Shown: positions 42,723 to 60,408 of the stretch, piece after piece | How positions within the stretch are numbered: position 1 is the first letter of the stretch | Layout of the letters: every line of letters starts with the position of its first letter | Virus record (IMG/VR): IMGVR_UViG_3300045988_104258 | Direction: 5' to 3' (one strand) | Length of the DNA stretch: 60,408 nt | Source: a virus | Translations under genes and position numbers: made by a program | The notes under the pieces: generated by a model | The model's database searches: none | Seen by the model: the letters and a program-made list of their open reading frames with translations, nothing else | What the model was told of the DNA's origin: nothing

Positions 42723-42737
42723 ACGAAATTATTGCGA

Positions 42738-43112: not shown

Positions 43113-43236
43113 AGTTCTTCTCCTTTATTAAAAATATAAGTCTGAGCTGCTGCCTCTGAGAACGCCATTTGCGACGTGGGCACTCACCGGCTGGTCCATT
43201 CAACGGAAGACTAACTCCTGCACTCAGAAATATCAT

Positions 43237-43620
43237 TTAATAAATTTCGAGGTTTGCGAGGCGTGCATCACGACGCTTCTGCTCGATGATATCAGGAGCA
43301 ACGTAGCTGACATTCACCAGATAGGACGGGATGCTGTAGTTCTTTGCAGCGAGATTCTCGATGACGCAGCCACGATAGCCCTTGTCCTCATCGTAAATGC
43401 CGATGAAGCGATCTGCTTCCGACAGTTTCTTGATGCTCTCACCGAGATACCAAAGAGCCATGTTGGTGTTCTCAGGAGGATCATCCTCGAAATAAGTCGG
43501 GATAACTTCCAGTTCTTCGCCAAAGACAGCCTCTGCAATCTTGTGCATCTGCTCCATGGATGCTTTAATGGCGCATTCCGTGCGATTACGCATAGGAACA
43601 CTGATAAACAGTTTCTTCAT
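43237..43620 (-). CDS. Nucleoside 2-deoxyribosyltransferase-like (DUF4406-type) protein
   Basis: MKKLFISVPM...; start at 43620 with SD AAGGAGGAG; family call is tentative. Confidence 0.35.
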   Translation of the reverse strand: MKKLFISVPMRNRTECAIKASMEQMHKIAEAVFGEELEVIPTYFEDDPPENTNMALWYLGESIKKLSEADRFIGIYDEDKGYRGCVIENLAAKNYSIPSYLVNVSYVAPDIIEQKRRDARLANLEIY

Positions 43621-43630
43621 GTGCTCCTCC

Positions 43631-44146
43631 TTAGAACGGCAAATCGTTCGGATCGTTAGGCTCAGCCATCTCGCGCTGCTCATACTTAGCAGCATACGGG
43701 TCGGCATCTGCATCCTGCTCCACGTAGAGAATATCCGCGTACAGCGTGTACTGGCCAGGGTTGTTCCGGTTCTCATACAGGTTAGCCTGCAGGTTCACGT
43801 TCTTCACACGGATATAATCCAGCTGACCGATGTTCTCAGCGTTGCAGGCAACCTTGCGGCCAGTGGTGGTGATCCAGAAAACCTGCGGAGGCCACTTGGA
43901 ATCCATGTTGACCGTCACCGGAACGTAGAAGGTCGGTACGAACGGCTCATCGTAGGTGTAGTTGGGGTTCGGCTTGGTCTGCTTGACGTTCAGCCCCATT
44001 TTGATGAGCTGCTGAGCCTGCTCCTCCGTAGGGATGACCACGTTCACACGCCGCCGGGACGAACCGTAACGGTCGCGGTTCGGGTCGCCAGAGAAATTGG
44101 TGTCGAAAATAAACCGGGTATTGTCAATATTTACCTTTGCTTTCAT
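43631..44146 (-). CDS. Single-stranded DNA-binding protein (gp2.5/DUF2815-like)
   Basis: 171 aa with an acidic tail ending DPNDLPF, the SSB tip motif. Confidence 0.55.
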   Translation of the reverse strand: MKAKVNIDNTRFIFDTNFSGDPNRDRYGSSRRRVNVVIPTEEQAQQLIKMGLNVKQTKPNPNYTYDEPFVPTFYVPVTVNMDSKWPPQVFWITTTGRKVACNAENIGQLDYIRVKNVNLQANLYENRNNPGQYTLYADILYVEQDADADPYAAKYEQREMAEPNDPNDLPF

Positions 44147-44172
44147 AATAGAAACTCCTTTACTCTTTTTCT

Positions 44173-44658
44173 TTAGTGCATCGCCGCACTCATTTTTGCC
44201 AGCAGCCCCGCGATACCATCCTTGGTCTGCGCAGCCACCTGATTCAGCTCTTTCAACACCTTGGCATAAGCGCCAGCATCCTCGTTGGTTTCATCCGGCT
44301 TACACCACTTCTTAAAGACCTTATGGAACCGGGTATCGTTGCAAGCCATCTTTTTGCAAATGGCCAGAGCGAGGCCCTTTTCCTTATCGAAAATATCATC
44401 AGGCCCGCACTTCACCACCGTCTTGGTATTGTCAGACCAGAAGACAATCGTTGCCGGATCATTGAAGATGACTTTGCGGATGCTGACATTGCACATACCA
44501 AACCGCACAATATCATTCTTTTCAGCACGCTCCGTAGACTGGCGGGAGTAGTCAATTGCCATCGCAGTATAAATAGCCCTTGTGGGTTCATGATTGGACA
44601 TAAGCATCACTGGGGGCAACTCAGGGCACGCGTTCCAATTCCAAGCATCTTTTTCCAT
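44173..44658 (-). CDS. Hypothetical protein
   Basis: 161-aa ORF abutting the replicase. Confidence 0.4.
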   Translation of the reverse strand: MEKDAWNWNACPELPPVMLMSNHEPTRAIYTAMAIDYSRQSTERAEKNDIVRFGMCNVSIRKVIFNDPATIVFWSDNTKTVVKCGPDDIFDKEKGLALAICKKMACNDTRFHKVFKKWCKPDETNEDAGAYAKVLKELNQVAAQTKDGIAGLLAKMSAAMH

Positions 44659-48666: not shown

Positions 48667-48701
48667 TGGTAACTGACTTCCTCCTTTCTACGAGGTCTGT
48701 A

Positions 48702-48989
48702 TCAGACATCTTTTTTCGTGACACTCGCCTTGCCATCGCAGCAAATGTCCTTTTCAAACTGCATCTCTGCGAGTTCTGCTTCGGCAGCATCGGCGCGTTC
48801 CTTTTCAGCCTTGTGCTTCTTCTCGCTTTCATCCAGCATCTTGCAGGCAGTCCAGAACAGGCCAATGGTGCCTACCAGCAGCAGGTTCTTGCCGAAAAGC
48901 TTGCCCCTCTGGCGGCGAATCACCTTCTGGGCGGCATCCAGTGCCAGCTGAGTCTGTGCGAGTTCGTAATAAATGTTATTCATAGTCAC
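48702..48989 (-). CDS. Hypothetical coiled-coil/TM protein
   Basis: 95-aa ORF. Confidence 0.35.
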   Translation of the reverse strand: MTMNNIYYELAQTQLALDAAQKVIRRQRGKLFGKNLLLVGTIGLFWTACKMLDESEKKHKAEKERADAAEAELAEMQFEKDICCDGKASVTKKDV

Positions 48990-49139
48990 TTTTCCTCCAA
49001 TAATTAAGGTCTGCCAAAATCAGCCGACCAATGTGTTCGGTATTCCTACATGCTGTAATTCGCATCAAAACGACGGAATCATGGAGAACTTGCTCTATTA
49101 CACCTTCCATCGGGATGCATATTTTCGATACGTACACCA

Positions 49140-49691
49140 TCACATGTTGCTTTCGTTGAGATACGCCATCAGCTGATACCAAATATCTAACTGTCGCATA
49201 TCCACGTTCGGGCTTATTAAAGTAAAGAGCCCACCAGCTCCATTCGGCTGATAGGCTCTCTGATTGAAACGGTCGATGATAAATTGAGCGCGACCCTCGT
49301 TGAACCGAGCATCATCCATAGCTGCCAGCCCAAGACTAACAACCATGTTCCAGAACCATTGCCCCACTCGGTTTCCTGCTTCAGAATCTGCCATGATATG
49401 CTCTTCGATGCGGATGGAAAGCCCCACCATCATCTCCAACATGCTGCATGACATCCCGCTCGTTGCACTGTTCAACGCTGCATACGGGATACTTTTTTCC
49501 TGAGCGAATCGGTAGCGCAGGTCTCGCCCATCTTCAGCACGACTCGCATCCATCTCACAGGATGGAATAAAGTCTTGCTGAAATAAAAACGCAAGCAGCT
49601 TATGGAAAGAAAGATTTCTGGGCTCCCATCTTCCGCAAACTGTTTCACGCAGCCAGTCAAAATACTGACTGGTCATATCGTTAAATATCAT
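49140..49691 (-). CDS. Hypothetical conserved phage protein
   Basis: 183-aa ORF. Confidence 0.4.
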   Translation of the reverse strand: MIFNDMTSQYFDWLRETVCGRWEPRNLSFHKLLAFLFQQDFIPSCEMDASRAEDGRDLRYRFAQEKSIPYAALNSATSGMSCSMLEMMVGLSIRIEEHIMADSEAGNRVGQWFWNMVVSLGLAAMDDARFNEGRAQFIIDRFNQRAYQPNGAGGLFTLISPNVDMRQLDIWYQLMAYLNESNM

Positions 49692-50230
49692 TCATACTCC
49701 TCTCCGGAGTCAGGATACAAGTCCGCATACTTATTGCGCACCTTCAGAACTTCGTAGTCCTTCCGGTAGTTGTGATTGCGGACATGGACAAGATCAGGCT
49801 CTTCTGCTCCAAAATTATCCAGAGCCTTAGGGCCAATCACCTTTTCAATGTCCTCTACCCTGCTCCCATCACTATCATAAGTCAGGATGCCGTCTGCATA
49901 GTAGGTCAGGAAGCTGGTTTCGTAATCGTCCTCGTTACCGAACTCGTCGCTCGGAATAATCTCAATAGCCTCCATCGGCTCATGGGTCGGCTTCTCAGAA
50001 TCTTCCTCCTGACGATACGGACCGCTCACGAGATCGTACGCCTTTTCGTTCGACCGCTGCTCGATGGTCGTATCCAGTTCCTGCTCACGCTGCTTAAAAT
50101 GGTTCCGAGCGTCCTCGACCAGCACATCTGCCTGCTTCTTGTAAGTATCGCGCATCAGGAAGTGCATTGTGGCAACACCAGCAGCAAATCCGCCTACAAA
50201 TATCAAGGCATCACGCATCAGTTTTTTCAT
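49688..50230 (-). CDS. Membrane-anchored acidic protein
   Basis: N-terminal TM segment, acidic C-terminus. Confidence 0.4.
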   Translation of the reverse strand: MKKLMRDALIFVGGFAAGVATMHFLMRDTYKKQADVLVEDARNHFKQREQELDTTIEQRSNEKAYDLVSGPYRQEEDSEKPTHEPMEAIEIIPSDEFGNEDDYETSFLTYYADGILTYDSDGSRVEDIEKVIGPKALDNFGAEEPDLVHVRNHNYRKDYEVLKVRNKYADLYPDSGEEYE

Positions 50231-50381
50231 TGGCTTCTTCTCCTTTAATCGTCATCATGGTGAAGGCCAGTCCTCCAAAAAAGAGCGAAACACTCATGAG
50301 GACCCCTCCAACCAGATGCCGCTTTCGTTTCGTGTCGGTCAAATAATCGAGGAATAAAAACACCGATTCTAAACCGTCCAT
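50211..50381 (-). CDS. Small membrane protein
   Basis: Start MDGLESV with SD AAAGGA. Confidence 0.3.
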   Translation of the reverse strand: MDGLESVFLFLDYLTDTKRKRHLVGGVLMSVSLFFGGLAFTMMTIKGEEANEKTDA

Positions 50382-50504
50382 AAATATCCTTTCACTCAGA
50401 AAGGACTGCCAGACCGGATACGAAGCACACTCCGGCCATGGCTGCAAATACATAGGAAAGAGTCTTTACGTATCTGGTCATAGCTTGTCCCTCCAAAATA
50501 TCAG

Positions 50505-51473
50505 TTAGATTTTGTCGATGATAATGCCATCACAGTTGAAGTGCAGAATGACAGAACGCTCCTCGCCACGGAGGAAGCTCTTCAGTGCCTCATCGCTCGA
50601 TTCAAAGCTCGTGAGGCCGAAATCCACATGGTTGTGCAGCGAAGTGTCATTCGGATTGTATACCCAGCCAACGACCTGGCCAGTAGGAGTGCGCAGAGAT
50701 TGACCACCGTGCGTGCCAATCATGGTGAGCACCTCATTCAGGAACAGATGCCCCTGAGAACGCAGTTTCTTGTTCGCTGCAGACTCCATGAGGAGCAGAT
50801 AGTTCCGATTCAGGTCGGCATCCCGCTCCCACGTGTCCACAGTTTCATCGAAAATCAGAGTGCACGGATCATCTGCCTGCTCAGCGATATCCTTGTACTC
50901 TTTGATGACCTCCTCTACACCGTTCTCATCGACCTTCTTGGTTTCAACCTCCACGGCCTTAACGTTCTGCTCCAATTCATGCTGTACCCGCTCGCCAAAG
51001 CGGTCGGCGACGCGGTTCTTATAGCTGTTGAAAGACTGCTCCAGCGCGATGTAGGCAGCCGTCAGCGTTGCATTCCGCTTCGTCATGATATGATGACTGC
51101 CGAACATGCAACCGAGAGATGCTGCGCCCAGGCCAATCGCAGGTGCATACACCTTTGCAAGCTTCATACCGGTCTTAATGTAAGTCGTGGTGATGTCCTT
51201 CGTCAGGTCTTCCTTAGTGTAAGTCTCACCTTCCGACAGCTGAATTTCCCCGGAGTCTACCTTATCTTTAGTCTCGTGGATTTTCTCCACATTTGCCTTG
51301 TGCTCGGCCAGAATATACTGTGCCTTCAGGGTCGCCTTGCAGGCCAGAACGGTTGCAGTTACGCCACCGATTGCAGCACCAACCACCATGATGGTCGGGC
51401 TTGCTTTCTTCAGCTTGAATGCAGTCTTAGACAACATCTGCGTTGCCTTAGTCATGATTTCTTCCTTTTTCAT
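50505..51473 (-). CDS. Membrane-anchored paralogue family member (1 of 3)
   Basis: The N-terminal TM ...PTIMVVGAAIGGVTATVLACKAT.KA and ...APAIGLGAASLGCMFGS......RNATLTAAYIALEQSF..YKNRV are shared with 52869..53642 and 54149..54934. Confidence 0.5.
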   Translation of the reverse strand: MKKEEIMTKATQMLSKTAFKLKKASPTIMVVGAAIGGVTATVLACKATLKAQYILAEHKANVEKIHETKDKVDSGEIQLSEGETYTKEDLTKDITTTYIKTGMKLAKVYAPAIGLGAASLGCMFGSHHIMTKRNATLTAAYIALEQSFNSYKNRVADRFGERVQHELEQNVKAVEVETKKVDENGVEEVIKEYKDIAEQADDPCTLIFDETVDTWERDADLNRNYLLLMESAANKKLRSQGHLFLNEVLTMIGTHGGQSLRTPTGQVVGWVYNPNDTSLHNHVDFGLTSFESSDEALKSFLRGEERSVILHFNCDGIIIDKI

Positions 51474-51492
51474 AAAATATCAGTCCTTTCAA

Positions 51493-52098
51493 TTAGTTCA
51501 GAGGAACAGGTTTCGGAAATACGATAGTGTAACCGCCCGGAACACCCTTGATAGATGCAGGCCCAAGGTCATACCAGCCATACTTGCAGTCCTGATAATC
51601 ACGAGCATCACGGGTAATTCCCACAACATCGTAAAAATCAGCAATCGTGACCTGCCCGTATTCGTGGAGCGCATGGCCCATCTCGTTCAAAACATCATTC
51701 GCATCGGCATAGCTATCGAAGGTGATGTTCTGCCAGTCCAGCCGGTTCGGGCGATAGTTGTTCTGCGGAGGACGGCTCTGGTTTGCATTTGCGTAGTAGC
51801 TGCTATAGCTGTTACGCTGCTGAGAATATCCGCCCGTATTGGTGCGGGAACGGTCGACACCGAACAGTGCGATATTGACCGCAGAGCACACCATGTTCTT
51901 GATGCCGGGCAGAATATAATCCGTCCACAGCTTTTCGCGAATCGTCTGCAGGTCTTCTGCGAGAAAGTTATGCGCCAGCTTCTGGATCTCGCTCTCCTGT
52001 TTGATAGTCACCTTACCGGTCGTGACCTTCTTCAGCTGTTTCTTAGGCGGTTCGCCAGTGGAGTTGATGCTGCTGGAAGGCATTTCGATTTTAGCCAT
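51493..52098 (-). CDS. Hypothetical protein
   Basis: Start MAKIEMP overlaps the upstream stop. Confidence 0.4.
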   Translation of the reverse strand: MAKIEMPSSSINSTGEPPKKQLKKVTTGKVTIKQESEIQKLAHNFLAEDLQTIREKLWTDYILPGIKNMVCSAVNIALFGVDRSRTNTGGYSQQRNSYSSYYANANQSRPPQNNYRPNRLDWQNITFDSYADANDVLNEMGHALHEYGQVTIADFYDVVGITRDARDYQDCKYGWYDLGPASIKGVPGGYTIVFPKPVPLN

Positions 52099-52414
52099 TG
52101 GCCATACCCTCCTCTGCGTACTGGAGAATAGTTTCACCGATTTCCTTTGCGGTCTCAGGCAACCAGGCAGTGCCAAAGGTCTTGCCGGTCGTCTTGTCTG
52201 TAATGCTGATGATAACCTTTTTCACACCCTTGATAGTGGTTCCGGTGTCCACACGGAGCCGGTAATCCTTCAGAATATCCTGATAGTGCTTCTTAAACAT
52301 CACCTTGATGTAAGCCTTATCCCCGGCAACGCCAACAGCCACACCCGCAGCAAAGATGCCACCGATTACTGCAGCCTTTTTCCAGTTGAACTTTTTGTCG
52401 TTTTTCTTTTCCAT
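52091..52414 (-). CDS. Small membrane-anchored protein
   Basis: 107 aa with an N-terminal TM segment. Confidence 0.4.
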   Translation of the reverse strand: MEKKNDKKFNWKKAAVIGGIFAAGVAVGVAGDKAYIKVMFKKHYQDILKDYRLRVDTGTTIKGVKKVIISITDKTTGKTFGTAWLPETAKEIGETILQYAEEGMANG

Positions 52415-52440
52415 GGTAATTCTCCTTTATAAAAATAAAA

Positions 52441-52466
52441 GGAGCCGCAGATTTCCCCACGGCTCC
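52441..52466 (-). terminator. Conserved hairpin, copy T2
   Basis: Plus strand GGAGCCGCAGATTTCCCCACGGCTCC; minus-strand TTTTATTTTTATA follows. Confidence 0.55.
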
Positions 52467-52485
52467 CTTGCGGCTGTCCAACAGA

Positions 52486-52797
52486 TTATTCTTCGTCGGT
52501 TTCCACCACTTCGGTCACTTCTGCTTCGATGGGCTCGTCCTTCGCCTTCTTGCTGTCAATCCAGTTCTTTGCCTTGTAGCACAGCGGAACGAGTACGTGC
52601 TTGCAGAGCAGCTCAGCGCCCTTGTAAGCTGCGGCACCAGCCAGCATGAATACTGCCGTCTTGCCAAATCTACCAGATGCGCTCGAAATCTCCGCATGGT
52701 TCTCGTCCACACTGGGCACCAGGTTATCGACCTCCGGCATTGCATCCGTCAGGTTCTCAGTCATAGCGTCCATGTTGTTCATCATTTCGTTTTCCAT
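52486..52797 (-). CDS. Small acidic membrane protein
   Basis: 103-aa ORF with SD AAAGGAG. Confidence 0.4.
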   Translation of the reverse strand: MENEMMNNMDAMTENLTDAMPEVDNLVPSVDENHAEISSASGRFGKTAVFMLAGAAAYKGAELLCKHVLVPLCYKAKNWIDSKKAKDEPIEAEVTEVVETDEE

Positions 52798-52840
52798 AGT
52801 GATTCTCCTTTAATTAAAATATAAATGTTGGAGTATACCT

Positions 52841-52866
52841 CCATAACAGTCGGTGAAATTTTCGCG
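52841..52866 (-). promoter_or_regulatory. 26-nt promoter-like motif, copy A
   Basis: Minus strand CGCGAAAATTTCACCGACTGTTATGG, 43 nt upstream of the start at 52797. Confidence 0.45.
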
Positions 52867-52868
52867 AA

Positions 52869-53642
52869 TCAATAGCCCAGCCACTTCGGAGGCGTGCTGT
52901 AGTCCAGAACCATGCAAGGCATTCCGTCCTCGTCCAGCTTGGAACTGTAGAATGTTTCAATGGTCAGCGTGGAATCCGTATCCCAGCCCAAAAGGTCGCC
53001 GTTCTTGGTGTGCTCCAGTCCCAGATAATCGAACAGGTCATTCTGGGTCACACGAAAATCGCTCAGGAGTTGCTTGTTCAGGCCGTTCATCGCCCGATCC
53101 AGTGCATTTACGGTCGTCTTGAAATATCTTCCAGAGAAGCTTTCATAGCACTCGACCAGCTGGTCGTAAGATGCGTCGCGGGCTGCCGGTACAATAACCG
53201 GCGTTTCTTCCGGCTGCTTTGCCATCTTATCAAGGGTGATGGTCTGGCGAAGCTCTTTCTCCTTCTCCTCGCCGATGGTTTCCACGACTTTCTCCTGATA
53301 CTGCTTCAGGGCGCTTTCGCTCAGAGAATACGCGGCCGCCAGAGCTGCATTGCGCCGGTCGTTCTCATTCATGGCACCAATCATGCAGCCTGCAGATGCT
53401 ACCATGGAAATCGCCGTAGGAATATAAGCCGGAGCAGCCGTCTTTACGATGGTTTTCACATCCAGCTTCTCCGTGCCAAGTTCCTGCTTCTTCTCATCGA
53501 GCAGGATCATCGCCTTGGGAGTTGCCTTGACGGCGAAAACCACGCTCGTGACCATGCCCGCAATGCTGCCGCAGACCAGGATTTTGGGAAGGTTCTTTGC
53601 AATACCCTTTCCCACTTTCTTGCTAAATGTTTTCAGGTTCAT
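52869..53642 (-). CDS. Membrane-anchored paralogue family member (2 of 3)
   Basis: LPKILVCGSIAGMVTSVVFAVKATPKA ... AAPAYIPTAISMVASAGCMIGA...RRNAALAAAYSLSESALKQYQEKV. Confidence 0.5.
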   Translation of the reverse strand: MNLKTFSKKVGKGIAKNLPKILVCGSIAGMVTSVVFAVKATPKAMILLDEKKQELGTEKLDVKTIVKTAAPAYIPTAISMVASAGCMIGAMNENDRRNAALAAAYSLSESALKQYQEKVVETIGEEKEKELRQTITLDKMAKQPEETPVIVPAARDASYDQLVECYESFSGRYFKTTVNALDRAMNGLNKQLLSDFRVTQNDLFDYLGLEHTKNGDLLGWDTDSTLTIETFYSSKLDEDGMPCMVLDYSTPPKWLGY

Positions 53643-53672
53643 TTTTCATACCTCCGTAAAATATAAAAGAAA

Positions 53673-53696
53673 GAGCCGCAGATTTCTCCGCAGCCC
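53673..53696 (-). terminator. Conserved hairpin, copy T3
   Basis: Plus strand GAGCCGCAGATTTCTCCGCAGCCC; pairs on the minus-strand RNA with two G-U pairs. Confidence 0.5.
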
Positions 53697-53704
53697 TTTG
53701 CTTC

Positions 53705-53920
53705 TTAGTAGAGCTTATCCTCCGCACAATGGCGGTTTTTGTATGCTCCTCTCCTTCTTACCGGAGCAGGGTCATCCGTCAACCAGCTGTAGAGCCGAAT
53801 CGGCTGCAGGAGCAAGTACCAGATCAGCGCATCAAGTGCACTAAGCATCGCTCGCCCCAGCACCTTTAAGGCACCCAGCATCTCAGAATCCACCTGCTTG
53901 AAGTATTCGTGATCGAACAT
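53705..53920 (-). CDS. Small membrane protein
   Basis: Start MFDHEYF with SD GGAGGT. Confidence 0.35.
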   Translation of the reverse strand: MFDHEYFKQVDSEMLGALKVLGRAMLSALDALIWYLLLQPIRLYSWLTDDPAPVRRRGAYKNRHCAEDKLY

Positions 53921-53951
53921 AATTTTTACCTCCAATTCTTTTAGGATTTCT

Positions 53952-53977
53952 CCATAATAGCGTTGGAATTTTTCGCG
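53952..53977 (-). promoter_or_regulatory. 26-nt promoter-like motif, copy B
   Basis: Minus strand CGCGAAAAATTCCAACGCTATTATGG, 31 nt upstream of the start at 53920. Confidence 0.45.
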
Positions 53978-53978
53978 A

Positions 53979-54143
53979 TTAGAGGTTCTTTTCCGACAGC
54001 TGCTTGCGAACTTCTTCCTGAACCATATCCCGCAGGTCGTCCTCGGTCTTCTGGTCCTCGATCAGGTCATGCCCGAAGCCCATGATTGCGCTTGCTGCCA
54101 GCATCGCCATGGATGCAACTTTCCACCAGTTAATGTTCTTCAT
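53979..54143 (-). CDS. Small membrane protein (54 aa, below the ORF-track cutoff)
   Basis: MKNINWWKVASMAMLAASAIMGF...; translated by hand. Confidence 0.3.
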   Translation of the reverse strand: MKNINWWKVASMAMLAASAIMGFGHDLIEDQKTEDDLRDMVQEEVRKQLSEKNL

Positions 54144-54148
54144 AAATA

Positions 54149-54934
54149 TCATGCTCCTTTATAATCCAAATGCCGTTTCATAGCATCATAATCCAGAAAT
54201 TCTTTAATAGGTTCCTGAAATGCTTCTACATAGTAGACTTCCAGTCCATCATCGGTCGTCTGCTTATAATAGTTGAAGTCAATCCAGTAATACTCCCACT
54301 CATTGGCGAGGTATTCTGCGCACCACCCCAGTGTATCCCCTTCTGGCGTGAAGTCCAACCCCGGCAGATAGGAAGTGAAATCATTCATTGACAATTCGCC
54401 GTTTAATGCAAAATACCGATTTGCATTGTAAAAAGCGTCCGTCAATTCGATCTCGGTGGCATGGAAATATCTTTTTGAGATAGGCTCGTAGCAGAGCAGC
54501 TTCTCCTCTTCCATCTTTTCACGGACTTCCGGAAGCTTTTCTTCTTTGATTTGATCGTGAATCTCGGCTTCTTTTTCGATACCAAAATTCTCAATCACTT
54601 TCTGCCGATACTCCTGATACGCCTTTCCAAGTGCCATGTAGCCAGCGGTCAGGCTCGCAATCTGCTTCTTGTTCAGCGCATTGGAACCGAGGATACATGC
54701 GATGGTCCCCGCGCCAAGTGCCGCGGCAGGCAGATAAAACTTCCAGCAGTCCTGTATTTTTTCTTTCATGGTATACACAGGCTCTGCAGAGTTCATCTCA
54801 ATAAGCTTCTCTGCCTTGATACTCGCCTTACCCGTTTCGATGGCAGTCAACACCACTCCCACGGAAGCGCCAATTGCCAAGATTGTCCCGCCATTCTTTT
54901 TCAAGAACCGGGACGCGGATTTCATGAGGTTCAT
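54149..54934 (-). CDS. Membrane-anchored paralogue family member (3 of 3)
   Basis: GGTILAIGASVGVVLTAIETGKASIKA ... LPAAALGAGTIACILGS...KKQIASLTAGYMALGKAYQEYRQKV. Confidence 0.5.
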   Translation of the reverse strand: MNLMKSASRFLKKNGGTILAIGASVGVVLTAIETGKASIKAEKLIEMNSAEPVYTMKEKIQDCWKFYLPAAALGAGTIACILGSNALNKKQIASLTAGYMALGKAYQEYRQKVIENFGIEKEAEIHDQIKEEKLPEVREKMEEEKLLCYEPISKRYFHATEIELTDAFYNANRYFALNGELSMNDFTSYLPGLDFTPEGDTLGWCAEYLANEWEYYWIDFNYYKQTTDDGLEVYYVEAFQEPIKEFLDYDAMKRHLDYKGA

Positions 54935-54964
54935 AGGCTTCTCCCTTCAAATATAAAAGACAAA

Positions 54965-54988
54965 GAGCCGCAGATTTCTCCACGGCCC
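54965..54988 (-). terminator. Conserved hairpin, copy T4
   Basis: Plus strand GAGCCGCAGATTTCTCCACGGCCC. Confidence 0.5.
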
Positions 54989-54999
54989 TGAGCCTGTCA

Positions 55000-55247
55000 T
55001 CAACAATTTCTCATCTTTTCACCAAGGCTGGCGAAACAGTCTGTAAAGATTTCAAATACTTTCTGGTCACGCTTGCGATATTTGCTGTTGATTTTCGCAT
55101 TGATCGCATCTGCGGCCGCATAATTCCCATCCAGAACCATGTCGTTCCAAATATGGGCTATAGCATACGGACCGTAAAACGCATAATTTGATCAATAGCA
55201 CATAATACCGCCGTGCATACCAGAATTACTTTTACCATCTTTTTCAT
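55000..55247 (-). pseudogene. Small membrane-protein gene split by a 1-nt frameshift at a homopolymer
   Basis: MKKMVKVILVCTAVLCAIDQIMRF stops after 29 codons. The -1 frame continues YGPYAIAHIWNDMVLDGNYAAADAINAK... to 55000. One extra T in the coding-strand T4 run (plus-strand A4 at 55176-55179) would restore an 82-aa ORF. Confidence 0.4.
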
Positions 55248-55288
55248 AATTTCATGCCTCCAAAATGTAATTTTGAGATTTCATATCT

Positions 55289-55314
55289 CCATAAGATGGC
55301 ATGAATTTTTCGCG
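55289..55314 (-). promoter_or_regulatory. 26-nt promoter-like motif, copy C
   Basis: Minus strand CGCGAAAAATTCATGCCATCTTATGG, 41 nt upstream of the ATG at 55247. Confidence 0.45.
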
Positions 55315-55539
55315 TCAACAGATTCCTGCCTTCTTCAAAATATCCATGAGGTCGGCCTTCGGCATCTCAGCATCCAGTTCCAGATGAACATTCACCTTCT
55401 GCTCCTTATCAGACCATTCGGCTCGAATATCATCCAGATTGACCGTGATACCATACTTCTGTTTGGCAATCGCCTTGTTGATAGCCGAAGAAATGATTCG
55501 GCGCATAAAACTTGACCGGATAAGCATTAAGTCCTCCAT
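55315..55539 (-). CDS. Hypothetical protein
   Basis: 74-aa ORF. Confidence 0.35.
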   Translation of the reverse strand: MEDLMLIRSSFMRRIISSAINKAIAKQKYGITVNLDDIRAEWSDKEQKVNVHLELDAEMPKADLMDILKKAGIC

Positions 55540-55561
55540 GATGTTCTTCTCCTTTTATGAT

Positions 55562-55747
55562 TTATTCAACTCGCTTATAGTCGTGCAATTCCGGGCACTC
55601 GTCTTCTTCACAGTCCGTCACGGTCCATTCATCGCACCAATCGATGGTTTCTGTATCCTGACAATCTGCAATCTGCATTGCGTCTGCAGGAGTCGCGGCC
55701 TCAACCCAGATAGTGCCAGTTCTAACTACTGTAACTGCATATTTCAT
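55562..55747 (-). CDS. Small acidic Cys-containing protein
   Basis: Start MKYAVTV with SD AAAGGAGAAG. Confidence 0.35.
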   Translation of the reverse strand: MKYAVTVVRTGTIWVEAATPADAMQIADCQDTETIDWCDEWTVTDCEEDECPELHDYKRVE

Positions 55748-55922
55748 TGTTCTTCTCCTTTTAAGATATCGAAGTAAACTTCTATGGCTTTCCGAAACAC
55801 TTCTGATTTCGTTTGATCTGTTCATTCACTAAGATTTGTGAGCATTTCAGCTTCTTCGGCTGTAAGTCGTATTTTGAATGTCACATCCCGTGTAACCTCT
55901 TTGGGCGGTCTGCCTCTCATAG

Positions 55923-56285
55923 CTAAATCAAACTTCTATCAAACACTGTCTCCCAGCGTTCTTTTTTCAGTGGTTTCATTCGTAAGGCCCACATGATTTG
56001 CCGGACTGTGACGGTAGGATAGCAGCCATTCGCATCTTTCTTCTTTGCATGGTGGTCAAAATATTCCTTGAATCCAGCATGCAGATAGATTTTGTCGTTC
56101 AACCATGGGTCAATAGCGCTCCATGTGGTGGATTTCGTTTTCTCGTTAAAACGCTGCTGGATAACGCAAAGGCCTTTTTCATGGTCCAAATATAATGTAC
56201 TGATGCGATAGACCGGATGATTGCATCGGTACGTTTGACCATAGTAGTTTGTCCAATTTTCAGGTGGTAGATTATGGTATCTCAT
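55923..56285 (-). CDS. Hypothetical protein
   Basis: 120-aa ORF. Confidence 0.4.
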   Translation of the reverse strand: MRYHNLPPENWTNYYGQTYRCNHPVYRISTLYLDHEKGLCVIQQRFNEKTKSTTWSAIDPWLNDKIYLHAGFKEYFDHHAKKKDANGCYPTVTVRQIMWALRMKPLKKERWETVFDRSLI

Positions 56286-56295
56286 AAAAGAAAGA

Positions 56296-56321
56296 GAAGC
56301 TGCAGATTTCTCCGCAGCCTC
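56296..56321 (-). terminator. Conserved hairpin, copy T5 (compensatory stem changes)
   Basis: Plus strand GAAGCTGCAGATTTCTCCGCAGCCTC; CCG/CGG is replaced by CTG/CAG while the loop is retained. Confidence 0.5.
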
Positions 56322-56334
56322 TCCTGTCCCTCCT

Positions 56335-56760
56335 TTATACAGACTTTTTTCCGTAATCCTTGTAGATCATCTTGCCGTCCCGATAGCGGTCGTCGAACAC
56401 CTGCACACCGCCTGCCGAACAAATTGCCCAGAACCGGTCATGGTGAATCATCAGAAATGCCCCCAGAGCGGTCGATGCAATACCAGCTACGACTTTCGCC
56501 ACTTCGGTTTTCCAAGCCTTCTCTGCCTTGTCTGCTTCGATTCTGAGTTCATTTGTCTTCATCTGAAGCTCATCCTCTCGTGCATTCTTGTCAGCCAGGT
56601 TTGTTTTCTCCTTAACGCGAATTTCGTAGAACTTTGCAGCGCACTCGTAGGCAGCCTTGTACTCATCGCTTCCCGGTGTCAGATCCTTAATTCGTTCAAG
56701 CTCGTGCTTAATCGTTTCGTCCATCAACTTTTCGTTCTGGACTGCATTCAGTTCTTCCAT
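56335..56760 (-). CDS. Coiled-coil protein with a C-terminal TM segment
   Basis: 141-aa ORF. Confidence 0.4.
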   Translation of the reverse strand: MEELNAVQNEKLMDETIKHELERIKDLTPGSDEYKAAYECAAKFYEIRVKEKTNLADKNAREDELQMKTNELRIEADKAEKAWKTEVAKVVAGIASTALGAFLMIHHDRFWAICSAGGVQVFDDRYRDGKMIYKDYGKKSV

Positions 56761-56799
56761 TTTGATTATCTCCTTTTAAGTCAATATTTGGAGTTTTCT

Positions 56800-56825
56800 C
56801 CATTAAACAGAATGTTTTTCTCGCG
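56800..56825 (-). promoter_or_regulatory. 26-nt promoter-like motif, degenerate copy J
   Basis: Minus strand CGCGAGAAAAACATTCTGTTTAATGG, 39 nt upstream of the start at 56760; overlaps the 3' end of the upstream ORF. Confidence 0.35.
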
Positions 56826-57063
56826 GCTTCAGTTTACTCACCTTGTTCACTTTGAGAATAACATACTGTTTATCGGCAAAGTCTACGGATTCCCCACCCA
56901 AGTTCAAGAACAGACTTGGGTTCTCGTTCTCGTCTGCCTGAGCAACGATAAGGGAGCCAATCGTTTCGGCCTCGTAGTCAATCTTCCACCGAACAGCAGA
57001 ACCAACCACGAAGCCAATGGTCGCACAGATAAGCCCCAGACCAATGATGATGTACATTTTCAA
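56803..57063 (-). CDS. Small membrane protein
   Basis: 86 aa with an N-terminal TM segment. Confidence 0.4.
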   Translation of the reverse strand: MKMYIIIGLGLICATIGFVVGSAVRWKIDYEAETIGSLIVAQADENENPSLFLNLGGESVDFADKQYVILKVNKVSKLKPREKHSV

Positions 57064-57119
57064 ATCTCCTTTGTAATAGAATAATGGATAAACCGGTCGT
57101 ATGCGTGATGAAAATAAAA

Positions 57120-57145
57120 GGAGCCGCAGATTTCTCCACGGCTCC
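57120..57145 (-). terminator. Conserved hairpin, copy T6
   Basis: Plus strand GGAGCCGCAGATTTCTCCACGGCTCC; minus-strand TTTTATTTTC follows. Confidence 0.55.
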
Positions 57146-57153
57146 CTTACGCC

Positions 57154-57387
57154 TTAAATGTCGTTTCTGATCAAGAACAGGTCGTTACGATTGCAAGCAG
57201 GTCTCACAATCCCTTTTGCCCGAATCAACGCGATTGCATTGGCATAAGCCGCGCGTGCACTTTGAGCGTTCTTGTACTCGCCTGTATCAATGTACATGAC
57301 TTTCTGGTTGCTCTCGATGAATACGCGGATCTTGTCCATTGCGTTCACATAGCCTCGATCATAGGTAGTCTTTACTCGTTTGCTCAT
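57154..57387 (-). CDS. Hypothetical protein
   Basis: Start MSKRVKT with SD AAAGGAG. Confidence 0.4.
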   Translation of the reverse strand: MSKRVKTTYDRGYVNAMDKIRVFIESNQKVMYIDTGEYKNAQSARAAYANAIALIRAKGIVRPACNRNDLFLIRNDI

Positions 57388-57423
57388 AATAAATTCTCCT
57401 TTCAATTTTCAGAAGACATCCTT

Positions 57424-57449
57424 CCATAATAGAATACGAAAAGTTCGCG
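57424..57449 (-). promoter_or_regulatory. 26-nt promoter-like motif, copy D
   Basis: Minus strand CGCGAACTTTTCGTATTCTATTATGG, 36 nt upstream of the start at 57387. Confidence 0.45.
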
Positions 57450-57471
57450 TTGGCTAACCTAGAATAAAAAA

Positions 57472-57541
57472 GAAAGAGAACGGGAATCGAACCCGTAACC
57501 TCTGCATTCCAGCAGCGCTCTACCAATTGAGCTATCTCCTT
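57472..57541 (-). tRNA. tRNA-like gene with a defective or short anticodon arm (70 nt; possible pseudo-tRNA)
   Basis: Acceptor AAGGAGA/TCTCTTT (one G-U), D-arm TAGCTCAATTGGTAGAGC, T-arm ACGGGTTCGATTCCCGT. Only 20 nt lie between the D and T stems where 23 are expected. Best pairing is CTGC/GCAG with a 6-nt loop TGGAAT. Confidence 0.45.
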
Positions 57542-57567
57542 CCATAAAAGAAGATGAAAATTTCGCG
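57542..57567 (-). promoter_or_regulatory. 26-nt promoter-like motif, copy E (abuts the tRNA-like 5' end)
   Basis: Minus strand CGCGAAATTTTCATCTTCTTTTATGG. Confidence 0.45.
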
Positions 57568-57594
57568 AACAAAAAGCAGAGGGCGTGTTTTAAT

Positions 57595-57768
57595 TTACTT
57601 ATTGCTCTTTGTCTTGTCAGAATCCAAATTTTCTCTTGCCTTTTGCAGCTTGATGTATGCCACATATGCTTCCATGGTTGTCGCCACCAAGCAAATTGCA
57701 GCACTGCCAGCTTTCATAAAAGGTACAGTCCCTAAAAGTTTCTTTCCAATGACATATCTAGCTTTCAT
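57595..57768 (-). CDS. Small membrane protein
   Basis: Start MKARYVIG with SD GGAGGATG. Confidence 0.35.
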   Translation of the reverse strand: MKARYVIGKKLLGTVPFMKAGSAAICLVATTMEAYVAYIKLQKARENLDSDKTKSNK

Positions 57769-57797
57769 AGTATCATCCTCCAATATGCCCTCTACTT

Positions 57798-57823
57798 CCA
57801 TAAAGGAAAATGAAAATTTCACG
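57798..57823 (-). promoter_or_regulatory. 26-nt promoter-like motif, copy F
   Basis: Minus strand CGTGAAATTTTCATTTTCCTTTATGG, 29 nt upstream of the start at 57768. Confidence 0.45.
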
Positions 57824-57840
57824 AACAGGCAAAAAATAAA

Positions 57841-57864
57841 GAGTCGTAGATTTCTCCACGGCTC
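57841..57864 (-). terminator. Conserved hairpin, copy T7
   Basis: Plus strand GAGTCGTAGATTTCTCCACGGCTC; minus-strand TTTATTTTTT follows. Confidence 0.5.
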
Positions 57865-57872
57865 TCTTTCCA

Positions 57873-58061
57873 CTAGCAAGAAAGTTCTACCCAACAGTGG
57901 TACTGCCCACAAGGTAAAGCGTCATGCGAAGGATGCTTCATCTTATACGGACACGCCTCGCAATTCCTAATATTATCTGGGTCTGCGAGGAATTCTCGTA
58001 TTAGTGCATTATCACTTCCATCACGTTTCCATTGTATATGCTTCCACTTTTCATTAGGCAT
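57873..58061 (-). CDS. Cys-rich small protein
   Basis: 62 aa; CEACPYK...CGQYHC. Confidence 0.4.
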   Translation of the reverse strand: MPNEKWKHIQWKRDGSDNALIREFLADPDNIRNCEACPYKMKHPSHDALPCGQYHCWVELSC

Positions 58062-58073
58062 AACTAATCACCT

Positions 58074-58099
58074 CCATAAAACACCCTGAATTTCTCGCG
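58074..58099 (-). promoter_or_regulatory. 26-nt promoter-like motif, copy G
   Basis: Minus strand CGCGAGAAATTCAGGGTGTTTTATGG, 12 nt upstream of the start at 58061. Confidence 0.45.
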
Positions 58100-58111
58100 T
58101 CCAAAAAGTAA

Positions 58112-58135
58112 GAGTCGTAGATTTCTCCACGGCTC
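58112..58135 (-). terminator. Conserved hairpin, copy T8
   Basis: Plus strand GAGTCGTAGATTTCTCCACGGCTC. Confidence 0.5.
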
Positions 58136-58144
58136 TCGCCTTTC

Positions 58145-58450
58145 TTAGTAAACGAGATAATTCGTATACTGCTTCTTTTCTACTTGCTTGATCACACCTG
58201 CTTTTTTCAGCAGCTCAAAATCACGGATGATCTCGCCCATGCTGAATGCCTCAAATTCGACATTGAAGTCCGTGCGCTTCTTCTTTCCATCTTCGTAGGT
58301 TCTGATCGAATAGACCATCTGGCTAACCAGCCTCGGGTCCATCTTACAGTTCCGACGAACGACTTCCATCATCAGCTCACGTCCTTCATAGTCGTCATCT
58401 CTGACACCCTTCACGATAACGGTCATGTGATTTACTTTGCTATTAAACAT
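58145..58450 (-). CDS. Hypothetical protein
   Basis: Start MFNSKVNHM with SD AAAGGAG. Confidence 0.4.
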   Translation of the reverse strand: MFNSKVNHMTVIVKGVRDDDYEGRELMMEVVRRNCKMDPRLVSQMVYSIRTYEDGKKKRTDFNVEFEAFSMGEIIRDFELLKKAGVIKQVEKKQYTNYLVY

Positions 58451-58489
58451 ATTGTGTTCTCCTTTGTATTTAAACAGTGAATATTCGTT

Positions 58490-58515
58490 CCATAAAGGAA
58501 CCTGCAATTTTCGCG
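58490..58515 (-). promoter_or_regulatory. 26-nt promoter-like motif, copy H
   Basis: Minus strand CGCGAAAATTGCAGGTTCCTTTATGG, 39 nt upstream of the start at 58450. Confidence 0.45.
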
Positions 58516-58516
58516 T

Positions 58517-58939
58517 TCACTGCCGTTCCTTACTCAGGAGCCAGAAGAAATAATGGTAAAACTTATAGTATGTTTTTCTGCAGCATGGGCACCCATTGGC
58601 TCTCAGTGCATCATAGCACACCTCTTCCGTCACACCTCTTAATACGTATGGTGCAATAGCAGGTTCTAGCTTTGCTACACAGCGGTCGATAATATCAATG
58701 TGCATCGAATAGTAGGCTCGTATCATAGCCTGCCGCTCTGTCGAGCTTTCTGGGAGGCTTCCTCTTATAATTCCAGAAACCTCGTGGCTGCTCGATTCCC
58801 ACCCGTTGACTTGTTCTAAAGCCTTTTTCCAGTCCGGGTACTGCAAGCAAAAGTTTTTCAGCTCGTAGTAGCGGTATTTAGTTATGTAGAAGGAGCTTTT
58901 CTTTGAGAGTTCTGGTTTTTCATTCCGCAATTTTTTCAT
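58517..58939 (-). CDS. Putative phage transcription regulator (RinA/ArpU or sigma region-4-like); first early gene
   Basis: 140 aa; YYELKNFCLQYPDWKK ... YVLRGVTEEVCYDAL... pattern; first gene after the integrase; family call is tentative. Confidence 0.35.
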   Translation of the reverse strand: MKKLRNEKPELSKKSSFYITKYRYYELKNFCLQYPDWKKALEQVNGWESSSHEVSGIIRGSLPESSTERQAMIRAYYSMHIDIIDRCVAKLEPAIAPYVLRGVTEEVCYDALRANGCPCCRKTYYKFYHYFFWLLSKERQ

Positions 58940-58987
58940 GGACAGGGATTTCCTTTCTAATTTTGTTCAGAAAGGATAATACTGTCC
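58940..58987 (-). promoter_or_regulatory. Nested inverted repeat covering the SD of the regulator gene
   Basis: GGACAG (58940-58945) / CTGTCC (58982-58987) and CCTTTCT (58952-58958) / AGAAAGG (58969-58975). Confidence 0.4.
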
Positions 58988-59011
58988 AAAATGGTCGTGT
59001 GCGTGCCCCTT

Positions 59012-59040
59012 TTAATATTCTTACTGATGAATTATGCCAA
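59012..59040 (-). promoter_or_regulatory. Sigma-A-type early promoter TTGGCA-17-TATTAA
   Basis: rc of 59035-59040 = TTGGCA, rc of 59012-59017 = TATTAA, 17-nt spacer. Confidence 0.4.
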
Positions 59041-59086
59041 GGCGAAGCAAATCGTTTAACCTAGAATAGAATTTGATTGGCAAAAA

Positions 59087-60049
59087 TCAGATAATTTTGC
59101 TAAGAGGACTATGCTTTCGGTACATTTCAGCAAGGTCATTTTGAGTGATGTCCAGATATGCTTGTTCTGTCACAGTCACGCTACTATGTCCTAATAACCT
59201 ACTAAGTGTGTAAATATCCCCACCACTCATAAGAAAGCGCTTTGCAAAGTTGTTTCGGAAAACATGCGGGTGAATGTCATTTAGCCCTATCCGCTGAGCA
59301 TACTTGCGAACATTGGCCTCGAAATTGCTCACCTGTATTCTCTTACCTTTATTCGTGCAAAAAAGGAAATCGCTATCACGGTAACGGTCTTTATACTTTA
59401 TCCACCGTTGAAGCTGTGTTGCCATCTTATCCGAGAAAAACACATAGCGCGCTTTCTTGCCCTTTGTGTTGTCTGCTGGTAGGCTAATGCACCGCTTCAC
59501 CATATCTAAATCTGTCACTTCAATCAGCAAGCACTCATTTACTCTCATGCCTGTATCGAGTAGAAGCTGAATGATGATGGAATCGCGGTATTCGCTAAAG
59601 CTCGCACTATTCATGCTCTTCAGTAGTCGCTTGAAATCTTCATCCGAAACGAACTCCAATGGCTTTCGTTCTACTTTAACAAAGTCGCCTTTCTTCACAG
59701 GTGAACGGAGAATCAGTTCCTCTTCCACGCACCAATTGAAGAAAACTCGCAGGTTCCGCAGATAGTTGTTGATCGTTACGTCCGACACTCGCTTTCCAAA
59801 ATCAACTCTCCGATCCGGATAGTTTCCGCTGTTCGGATTCGTAGTAACTGTATACTTTCCGCGTTCCTTAATGCTCTTTATGTAGCCCTGTATCGCAAGA
59901 TGGGTGATTTTCTCAGTCAGTAAAATCCCCTGCTCGTCTATATACTGCATGAAGAGCCTAAGTGTCTGTTCGTAGCTGTTGATGGTTTTCGTGCTCAGCC
60001 CTTTCAATCCACAGTGCTCAATGAACATTTCAATATCTCTTGCCAACAT
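59087..60049 (-). CDS. int: Tyrosine recombinase / integrase
   Basis: HPHVFRNNFAKRF...LLGHSSVTVTEQAYL (R-H-R-Y catalytic region); start MLARDIE with SD AGGAGG. Confidence 0.85.
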   Translation of the reverse strand: MLARDIEMFIEHCGLKGLSTKTINSYEQTLRLFMQYIDEQGILLTEKITHLAIQGYIKSIKERGKYTVTTNPNSGNYPDRRVDFGKRVSDVTINNYLRNLRVFFNWCVEEELILRSPVKKGDFVKVERKPLEFVSDEDFKRLLKSMNSASFSEYRDSIIIQLLLDTGMRVNECLLIEVTDLDMVKRCISLPADNTKGKKARYVFFSDKMATQLQRWIKYKDRYRDSDFLFCTNKGKRIQVSNFEANVRKYAQRIGLNDIHPHVFRNNFAKRFLMSGGDIYTLSRLLGHSSVTVTEQAYLDITQNDLAEMYRKHSPLSKII

Positions 60050-60101
60050 AAAAGAAAACCTCCTGTACACATCGGGCACTACACCCAATAAATACAGGAG
60101 A

Positions 60102-60169
60102 TTTATCGCCATTCGTTTGACTTATTTATCGCTATGAGAGCATAATTCTACATTTTTTATAGCGATAAA
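60102..60169. repeat. Three copies of TTTATCGC(C/T)AT (two direct, one inverted) upstream of int
   Basis: 60102-60112, 60125-60135 and the inverted copy ATAGCGATAAA at 60159-60169; the last two form an 11-bp perfect inverted repeat with a 23-nt spacer. Confidence 0.6.
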
Positions 60170-60233
60170 CAAAAGTCACGATTCCAAAGATTCCAATTTA
60201 TGCCTTTAAATATCACCTATATACGTCGTATAC

Positions 60234-60408
60234 TTACCCCACCCTCTGCCGCTTATCCAGCCGCATCTTATCGGCGATCATCGCGATGAACTCGCTGTTC
60301 GTTGGTTTTCCGCGCAGGTTATGGATGGTATAGCCGAAGTAGCTATTGAGGGTATCCACATCTCCCCTGTCCCACGCAACCTCGATGGCGTGGCGGATGG
60401 CCCGCTCC
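60234..60408 (-). CDS. 3' part of the spo0A-like ORF (continues from 1..183 through the terminal repeat)
   Basis: Minus-strand translation ...[36 protein letters not shown], the typical Spo0A C-terminal end; stop at 60234-60236. Confidence 0.6.
60345..60408. repeat. Terminal direct repeat, right copy (identical to 1..64)
   Basis: 64/64 nt identity with the window start. Confidence 0.95.

Follow-up and report, generated by a model that had tools for sequence, protein, structure and literature searches.

What is the 3′ end of a host sporulation gene doing at the ends of a phage genome? The stretch of DNA analysed here, IMG/VR virus record IMGVR_UViG_3300045988_104258 (60,408 nucleotides (nt); "the window" below), carries a 5′-truncated piece of spo0A that is divided between its two ends and lies next to an integrase gene (int). 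An earlier note, made from the sequence alone, had proposed that the phage integrates into the 3′ part of a host spo0A, and this has been borne out: the prophage lies inside the chromosomal spo0A, flanked by two direct 294-nt copies of the gene's 3′ end, and empty sites exist. We consider it very probable that the piece in the window is attP, the phage attachment site, and that the phage is a temperate Faecalibacterium siphovirus related to Oengus which integrates in spo0A.

The first and last 64 nt of the window are identical (1..64 and 60345..60408; no strand). This repeat is only the overlap of the contig ends, neither an attachment core nor a biological repeat; once it is removed, a unit of 60,344 bp is left. 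Nearly all long open reading frames (ORFs) of the window are on the minus strand. Joining the ends gives a single minus-strand frame (183..1, then 60344..60234), whose translation yields 97 Spo0A residues, just as the note had read it. The segment consists of the last 97 codons of spo0A (291 nt) and the stop codon, 294 nt in all, and starts at the Y of YQFLRD, directly after the residues KG. Its repeat positions 1..183 (codons for YQFLRD to TLN; window 183..1, minus strand) are delimited by the translation, by Pfam and NCBIfam matches and by the homology edge. Positions 184..294 (60344..60234, minus strand) include the stop codon, a TAA at 60236..60234 where host homology ends, and the peptide has the C-terminus DKRQRVG.

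The 97-amino-acid peptide matches the Pfam family Spo0A_C over profile positions 17-103 of 104 (E 6.8e-38) and the Spo0A equivalog TIGR02875 over positions 168-260 of 262 (E 5e-46), and against the crystallised Spo0A C-domains 1LQ1 and 1FC3 (120 residues) it covers residues 26-118. Since these alignments begin at residue 26, the first 25 C-domain residues are absent. The profile and structure alignments together agree with the earlier statement that the receiver and the first helices are missing: the fragment has no receiver domain, no linker and no first effector-domain helix. At the protein level it is 100% identical to host Spo0A, and a protein search with it returned matches at 97-100% identity, some of them labelled as Spo0A fragments of Gemmiger metagenome-assembled genomes (MAGs). 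It is also, as had been claimed, much closer to Spo0A than two Spo0A_C-like ORFs at 35.5-36.1 kb (35491..35829 and 35826..36080, both minus strand), which score 21.4 and 24.8 bits against a Pfam cut-off of 25 and have no or marginal BLASTP similarity to it.

The edges of the segment are sharp. The note had described an abrupt end of similarity near 183 with AT-rich, unrelated DNA beyond it; chromosomal spo0A nucleotide homology indeed spans exactly window 183 to 60237, and the G+C content falls from 0.63 in 1..150 to 0.36 at 201..300, with 0.31-0.35 at 60100..60249 on the other side. A stop codon lies 9 codons upstream of YQ, and the translation contains no ATG, GTG or TTG start ahead of the internal ATG of MNEPEY. 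The ORF that begins at this ATG encodes 86 amino acids, lacks 36 domain residues and is not preceded by a Shine-Dalgarno sequence.

The same segment is found at the prophage's junctions with host chromosomes. A scan with the integrase, restricted to one genome per species, found 41 loci, the best of which (99% identity) is in the isolate genome of Faecalibacterium tardum CLA-AA-H175 (locus L002). There the gene order is prfB, spoIVB (430 amino acids), a full spo0A (269-amino-acid ORF, 9007..9816) and int, and the Spo0A C-terminus is the same as that of the window fragment. Window positions 55924..60408 align to this locus at 98.5% and 5..183 at 93.9%, and the phage homology ends exactly at 183. 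An integrase protein identical to that of the window is recorded in 160 blocks of a public-assembly collection, and all of the 10 examined, chosen for the most flanking DNA, have the order prfB-spoIVB-spo0A-int. In F. tardum and in these 10 contigs int begins about 185 nt after a full spo0A; the int-side attachment site (attR) thus places int directly behind the host gene, as the note had anticipated. It comprises the 5′ part of host spo0A and one copy of the segment, followed by the int-side arm and int, and it encodes a full-length Spo0A with unchanged amino acids. In the 11 lysogens the reading frame is complete (252/269 amino acids, with Response_reg and Spo0A_C domains) and the C-terminal 97 residues are the same as at empty sites, so the insertion does not split the gene.

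Faecalibacterium is considered non-sporulating. The spoIVB-spo0A pair is kept in the genus (L002 7646..9816 and L053-L062), with the last 97 codons of spo0A under strict purifying selection, and the Spo0A receiver of the F. tardum locus looks intact, its D, T and K motifs being readable from the translation.

The far junction (attL) was approached through the window's holin gene (512..781, minus strand), which is recorded in 6,829 blocks; 10 places on contigs of 200-500 kb were examined. At every one, a lysis module ending in the holin is followed by the phage arm, the spo0A 3′ segment and host DNA, and in 7 of the 10 a tail module and the reverse transcriptase precede the lysis module. The alignment joins the phage arm (window 184 onward) at ...CCTATTATA, followed directly by TAYCAGTTCCTGCGGGA, to a full second 294-nt copy; beyond the stop codon that closes this copy, the host flanks diverge and the native downstream DNA of the host follows. 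In most contigs this flank includes pyrH, frr, uppS and a gene for DNA-alkylation repair, among others; L050 has rpmE there, and L052 a second integrase element. In 9 of the 10 places the segment is called as an 86-amino-acid Spo0A_C ORF. Every copy has its prophage-host junctions at exactly the same base.

Both junctions occur together in L044, a 225-kb scaffold with an 8.5-kb deleted derivative, and in a 59.9-kb provirus (L085/L115). An empty site is present on the 855-kb contig L001, the source of one of the protein-search matches, which reads spoIVB-spo0A-rpmE with no phage and has 89.7% nucleotide identity to the segment over window 183 to 60237. A gapped pattern made of the left host junction and the native right flank, with 268 unspecified bases between them, recovered 20 unoccupied sites (attB) in metagenome contigs. 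Since both junctions and empty sites were recovered, attP, attL, attR and attB are all represented. The host spo0A and the hybrid junctions that the earlier note had suggested looking for were thus all found, and the same two junctions recur in dozens of assemblies.

Comparison of the copies indicates which DNA completes the host gene in a lysogen. Among 25 copies (attP, 10 attR and 14 attL), 54 of the 291 sites are variable and every change is synonymous; with the 20 empty sites added, all 45 copies encode one identical 97-amino-acid peptide. A T at position 3 occurs only in attP and attL (0 of 11 attR, 0 of 20 attB). Window-type alleles at 225/228 are present in 4 of 11 attR, 1 of 10 attL and none of the 20 attB, and a window-type tract at 241-294 in 5-6 of 11 attR and again in no attB. 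Because these alleles are found in attR and in 0 of 20 attB, the right part of the attR copy is taken to be phage DNA, and the claim that the phage supplies a replacement 3′ end holds. Upstream of the segment, where their hosts are 17% diverged, the attR copies of L061 and L053 show 54 differences in 300 nt, but within it only 2 in 294 nt, and they have common derived sites from position 102 on. In the attL segment nucleotide diversity is 0.041, against 0.013 in the neighbouring phage arm.

The crossover must lie within the shared segment. These allele patterns, together with diversity profiles, segment-wise pairwise differences, the linkage of attL alleles to host flanks and an attL/attR pair from the same contig, suggest repeat positions 4-101 (window 180..83, minus strand). 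A narrower placement at the far left, positions 1-17, had leaned partly on the invariance of positions 1-84 in attR; this argument is weak, because empty sites vary little in 1-84 too, and the bracket was therefore widened to 4-101. The most parsimonious point within this bracket would be the left edge (167..180), at the invariant CAGTTCCTGCGGGA, beyond which the phage no longer requires homology. In the proposed mechanism, the Xer-like integrase would cross over near the 5′ edge of the common segment, and because of this position the copy that completes spo0A in a lysogen would be largely the phage's, while the host's old 3′ end would be parked at attL.

Several observations weigh against this account or complicate it. 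No inverted-repeat core was found inside the segment when it and both arms were scanned for 9-13-nt arms with a 5-9-nt spacer, the sole hit being a phage-arm palindrome (199..228) that lies outside the homology. The crossover is bracketed, not mapped to a site. In one lysogen attL equals attR over 127-240 and differs from it at 243-283, and the breakpoints between phage-type and host-type tracts vary among lysogens; because these mosaic breakpoints differ, exchange beyond simple recombination by the integrase must occur. An element with an 85%-identical integrase has only the last ~125 nt of spo0A, which is compatible both with a core that has shifted and with one lying more to the right. Furthermore, the contiguous junction of phage arm, segment and int arm is absent from the IMG/VR data searched (the four phage-arm matches there are all attL), so that the excised circle rests only on the 64-nt overlap, and a de Bruijn-graph cycle through the two repeats flanking a prophage could have produced that overlap as well. 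Finally, the functions proposed below for promoter, hairpin and repeats are sequence predictions only.

The overlap is accordingly no proof of a free circular genome. Its edges (positions 119 and 184) are not variable in any copy, which mildly favours a plain circular overlap, and the question of circularity leaves the attachment-site assignment unaffected. As to the mosaic, 10-19 of the 210 nt from position 85 to the stop codon differ between lysogens whose host flanks are alike (0-5 differences in 300 nt) and whose int-side arms show no difference in 400 nt. The mosaic might arise by gene conversion between the two copies, by homologous excision whose point varies, by exchange with shorter pieces on co-resident elements, or by Holliday-junction migration. 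A comparison of the sub-sites used by the two 85%-identical integrases shows agreement at 10 of 14 positions (ACCAGTTCCTGCGG, AACAGCTACTTCGG), which, with the number of offsets tried, is no more than suggestive of a common motif. The mosaic region itself covers window 99..1 and 60344..60229 (repeat positions 85-299) and was seen in loci L002, L043-L062 and L157-L176.

Could the fragment instead be an auxiliary gene of the phage, a receiver-less Spo0A DNA-binding protein that steers Spo0A-controlled genes of the host? It retains the helix-turn-helix and the C-terminal helices, a near-consensus promoter-like site abuts it and recurs in other elements, and its peptide shows no change even where the copy has been displaced, at attL. 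Other phage contigs do contain true domain-only Spo0A_C genes. Yet the homology edges of the fragment are the prophage-host junctions to the base in every lysogen, its 5′ edge has no start codon, and the one ATG-initiated ORF is the shortened one described above. Its DNA is 90-100% identical to that of the host, whereas the genuine phage copies have 40-59% protein identity and start at about residue 137, a natural boundary. A complete domain, a start of its own, a diverged sequence and an internal location would mark a Spo0A_C-only regulator, and the fragment, with an incomplete domain, no start at its edge and a peptide identical to that of the host, does not fit. In IMG/VR, where 344 contigs encode a relative of the fragment, both kinds exist. 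Among the best 80 of the 344, one class has a full spo0A with spoIVB, often with int, and represents host flank; a second has abrupt 3′ pieces that lie at a contig end or have a clade integrase directly behind them, their first residues being 156, 171 (13 loci), 187, 207 and others; and a third has complete domain-only genes (residues ~137-246, 40-59% identity) in mid-contig with no int. Host flanks and attachment-site duplicates make up roughly half of these best 80 matches, genuine phage genes the remainder; the domain-only class fits the auxiliary-gene proposal (PMC10294663), and the other two do not. An attachment-site role and an auxiliary gene are not mutually exclusive, but the former explains the structure fully, and we regard the latter as very unlikely for this fragment.

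A different objection accepts the attachment site but moves the crossover to, or just before, the spo0A stop codon; the 291 nt would then be a passenger from one imprecise excision and the host gene would never be rebuilt by the phage. That the whole clade of related elements shares the right boundary while the left one varies (residues 156, 171, 174, 185, 187, 197-199, 207-214) speaks for it, as do the TTTATCGC repeats, whose distance from the stop codon (64-131 nt) is typical of arm sites, and the shorter piece paired with the 85%-identical integrase. Host flanks to the right of the stop codon, however, hold no common sequence that could form the right half of a core. The phage-type alleles in attR that never occur in the 20 empty sites, the attR segments that travel with the phage across hosts diverged by 17% upstream, and an attL segment more diverse than the adjacent phage arm all argue against it as well, and we judge a crossover at the stop codon to be highly improbable. 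Contamination with host DNA, or a chimeric assembly, would make the terminal spo0A sequence unrelated to the phage, and the contig does end inside host-shared sequence, where assemblers break or mis-join. But the junctions of arm with segment and of segment with int arm recur in dozens of independent assemblies, an isolate genome among them, and this explanation has next to no probability.

With the attachment-site assignment preferred, we turn to the integrase. The gene (59087..60049, minus strand; 320 amino acids) starts 185 nt downstream of the spo0A segment on the same strand, with AGGAGG ahead of its ATG, and its product is identified as a Xer-like tyrosine integrase by PF00589, the XerA/XerC/XerD models and phrog_1, an integrase family. 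Residues 133-302 match PF00589 positions 2-169 of 172 (E 9e-36), and the R-K-H-R-H/W-Y catalytic residues can be read from the translation in the motifs TGMRVNE, KGKKARY, HPHVFRNNF, LLGHSS and EQAYLD. From residue 8 on, the XerA (2-263 of 263), XerD and XerC models cover the protein end to end, and no lambda-type N-terminal arm-binding domain appears among the profile matches over the 320 residues. Because the Xer models match end to end, the integrase has no separate arm-binding domain; it would thus act as a phage integrase yet have a Xer-type build.

Between the spo0A stop codon and int there are three exact copies of TTTATCGCYAT (60102..60169, no strand): two direct, at 60102 and 60125, and one inverted, at 60159. 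The note had placed the integrase and this triple repeat just downstream of the segment, correctly, and no other exact copy occurs in the window. With at most one mismatch there are 7 matches in the window against 1.85 expected, a number reached by 0 of 100 shuffles. The 14-nt inverted pair of these int-side repeats is also present in the lysogen and in related elements, and the copies are candidate sites for binding of an accessory protein or of the integrase. The palindrome at 199..228, the one hit when the attP region was scanned, is imperfect (ATAAATACAGA-8 nt-ACTGAATTTAT; no strand), and its arms are similar to the CGATAAAT motif seen in the int-side repeats.

Relatives of the integrase occupy the same gene elsewhere. 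Twenty-four of them (42-100% identity) sit 170-300 nt after a full-length spo0A; among relatives with at least ~42% identity, a further two lack any upstream sequence and one lacks spo0A. Their hosts are Faecalibacterium, Pseudoflavonifractor, Oscillibacter, Lawsonibacter, Faecousia, other Oscillospiraceae and a Christensenellaceae MAG. No spo0A was found near the 21-30%-identical relatives in Bacillus and in actinomycetes (Nonomuraea and related genera). Several clade loci contain an additional, incomplete 3′ copy, which marks where a small element or tandem ends on the side away from int and extends from an abrupt start (residue 174, 185, 197-199 or ~212) to the stop codon. The integrase clade thus uses spo0A across the Oscillospirales, each member with a 3′ piece of its own length.

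Some clade loci have further features. Mini-elements of ~1.5-3.5 kb (L014 10001..13327; L023 2338..4514; L027 10001..11234) hold little besides a clade integrase and the spo0A 3′ duplicate, and may be satellites or decayed elements. Loci L003 (CALADS010000048.1) and L005 (CAVEGP010000041.1) are filed under Bacteroides and have a Faecalibacterium-type integrase (L005 spo0A, 87% identity); the assignment is likely a case of mis-binning. The gene is also an insertion hotspot (L004 6529..17369; L006; L052 ~8600..9950; L085; L050 ~8890..9260), with tandem insertions of two different elements that each have their own spo0A 3′ piece and, at one site, a decayed int-side arm that has lost int, before rpmE.

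Regulatory elements are predicted on both sides of the segment. On the phage-arm side, a promoter-like TTGACT-16-TATTAT (window 212..185, minus strand; 10 of 12 matches) ends 1 nt ahead of the spo0A segment, reads into it and on towards int, and is kept in all attL copies. Comparable outward-facing sites, mostly with an extended -10, were found in 9 of 16 unrelated clade arms, 1-115 nt before the fragment, where 0.03 to 0.2 per arm would be expected by chance. Such a promoter would drive transcription through attP towards int in the circle, and into the displaced fragment in the prophage. On the other side, folding predicts an int leader hairpin (60044..60111, minus strand), in which CUCCUGUA pairs with UACAGGAG ahead of a U-rich run. 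Its minimum free energy is -31.7 kcal/mol (z-score -5.4; 0 of 200 shuffles equally stable), it sequesters the Shine-Dalgarno sequence of int, and its arms are conserved in L002, L004, L050 and L052. The hairpin could terminate spo0A transcription in the lysogen and gate int. The earlier note had also expected attL to leave a phage-promoted, truncated DNA-binding fragment. The truncated copy is there and the promoter-like site abuts it, but a working DNA-binding protein is unlikely, because helix A, most of helix B and a ribosome-binding site are missing.

That this architecture wires the phage to the Spo0A circuit of its host is a tentative and improbable extension. The arm promoter would express the displaced fragment in lysogens and int only in the circle, and the phage would replace the 3′ untranslated region and terminator of spo0A and put int behind them. 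If so, lysogeny could alter Spo0A-dependent stationary-phase physiology or tie excision to spo0A transcription, and the synonymous mosaic would record continual exchange between phage and host at a master regulator in a highly abundant gut bacterium. Promoters such as Pcirc of ICEclc and those at insertion-sequence circle junctions drive the integrase only in the excised circle. Here, too, the predicted site is at the end opposite int and would face it only after circularisation; in contrast to those systems, the promoter is purely predicted and a terminator-like hairpin intervenes before int.

The mechanism is classical, namely integration at a 3′ end with duplication of that end, and its target seems to be unreported: we found no report of spo0A as an attachment site in the literature searched. 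The closest parallel is icd of E. coli, into which e14 and phage 21 reportedly integrate (work attributed to Hill et al. in 1989, to Campbell and co-workers, and to Wang, Whittam and Selander in 1997). There, as here, a tyrosine integrase is encoded beside an attP that holds an alternative 3′ gene end, and the duplication leaves an intact gene and a displaced pseudo-3′ end; the 3′ part of the gene beside int, the exact flanking repeats, the intact gene and the empty attB were all found at our locus. The 3′ end of icd is likewise a synonymous mosaic in the E. coli population, owing to e14 and phage 21. The present system differs in its target, in the length of the duplicated piece (294 nt against about 165 nt), in its short, Xer-like integrase with no lambda-type arm-binding domain, and in that a whole integrase clade uses different sub-sites of one gene. 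Integrase subfamilies are also said, in work attributed to Williams in 2002, to prefer particular sublocations in tRNA and tmRNA genes. Such elements likewise carry the part of the gene from the crossover to the 3′ end, and related integrases keep the gene but may shift the sub-location; by contrast, the target here is protein-coding and under a synonymous-only constraint, and the piece is much longer than a tRNA arm.

Other elements reside in sporulation genes: skin in sigK, SPbeta in spsM and the yin element in yabG (PMC10747680, PMC5025042). All are, like the present one, prophages or prophage-like elements within a Firmicute sporulation gene, but they split the gene and need excision, whereas here the lysogen's gene is intact and the recombinase is a tyrosine integrase. 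The recombinases of skin and SPbeta are serine recombinases, used with a developmentally controlled directionality factor. Receiver-less Spo0A C-terminal pieces on gut phage contigs or mobile elements have been described before: Schwartz et al. (2023, mBio; PMC10294663) proposed truncated spo0A homologues in gut viromes to be host-manipulating regulators, and Jiang et al. (2019; PMC6907783) found Spo0A_C enriched on mobile elements of gut Firmicutes. Both treat such pieces as regulator or cargo genes, with no mention of integration, whereas the piece described here is an attachment-site duplicate.

The closest named phage is FP_oengus (MG711463), with 78.5% identity over 31% of window 40000..60344; what the two have in common are modules other than the attachment region. 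It resembles the present phage in size, siphovirus type, tyrosine integrase and diversity-generating retroelement (Cornuault et al. 2018, PMC5883640); that paper names no site of integration for Oengus and is silent on sporulation. As a relative of the attachment region FP_oengus had to be set aside, since neither the query of int with the spo0A junction nor the integrase protein was matched in its record. A reverse transcriptase (phrog_1423; RVT_1 in related prophages) is encoded in the window at 2062..3288 (minus strand), between the tail and lysis genes, and fits the retroelement reported for Oengus (PMC5883640).

Pieces of "phage spo0A" of this kind are thus integration sites and not phage regulator genes. 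The clade includes a very common gut phage, as the count of holin blocks indicates, and virome annotation should separate attachment-site duplicates and host flanks from genuine phage spo0A genes before ecological conclusions are drawn. Fourteen GenBank phage records with Spo0A matches, all unannotated gut contigs, illustrate this: 8 of the 10 fetched carry a full or near-full spo0A, mostly with spoIVB upstream, and for that reason the matches were rejected as phage genes and taken to be host flanks. The junction of spo0A with int offers a simple marker of lysogeny in Faecalibacterium and its relatives, and the mosaic 3′ end a natural system in which to follow phage-host exchange within an essential-looking coding region.

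A few neighbouring features complete the picture. Locus L073 (MT835614.1) has, at 2412..3752, a spoIVB homologue and, directly behind it, a match to Spo0A_C only (38% identity, residues 139-240), in which a receiver domain was not detected, and may be either a naturally receiver-less spo0A or one with a diverged receiver. In the window, the Spo0A_C-like pair at 35491..36080 (minus strand) adjoins a Phage_VG64 family gene; both ORFs are very diverged and may be true phage-encoded Spo0A-domain proteins, distinct from the attachment-site fragment, and perhaps weak representatives of the Spo0A_C-only regulators. A second promoter-like sequence, TTGACT-18-CATAAT (60117..60146, plus strand), overlaps the TTTATCGC repeats and would read antisense into the spo0A fragment. 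An attachment site based on a tRNA gene was considered and rejected, as the only tRNA-like gene (57471..57542, minus strand) sits 2.5 kb off. That gene scores 55.9 bits with the Rfam tRNA model, ARAGORN gives it no anticodon, and with its short anticodon arm and 6-nt loop UGGAAU it may be a degenerate or unusual phage tRNA.

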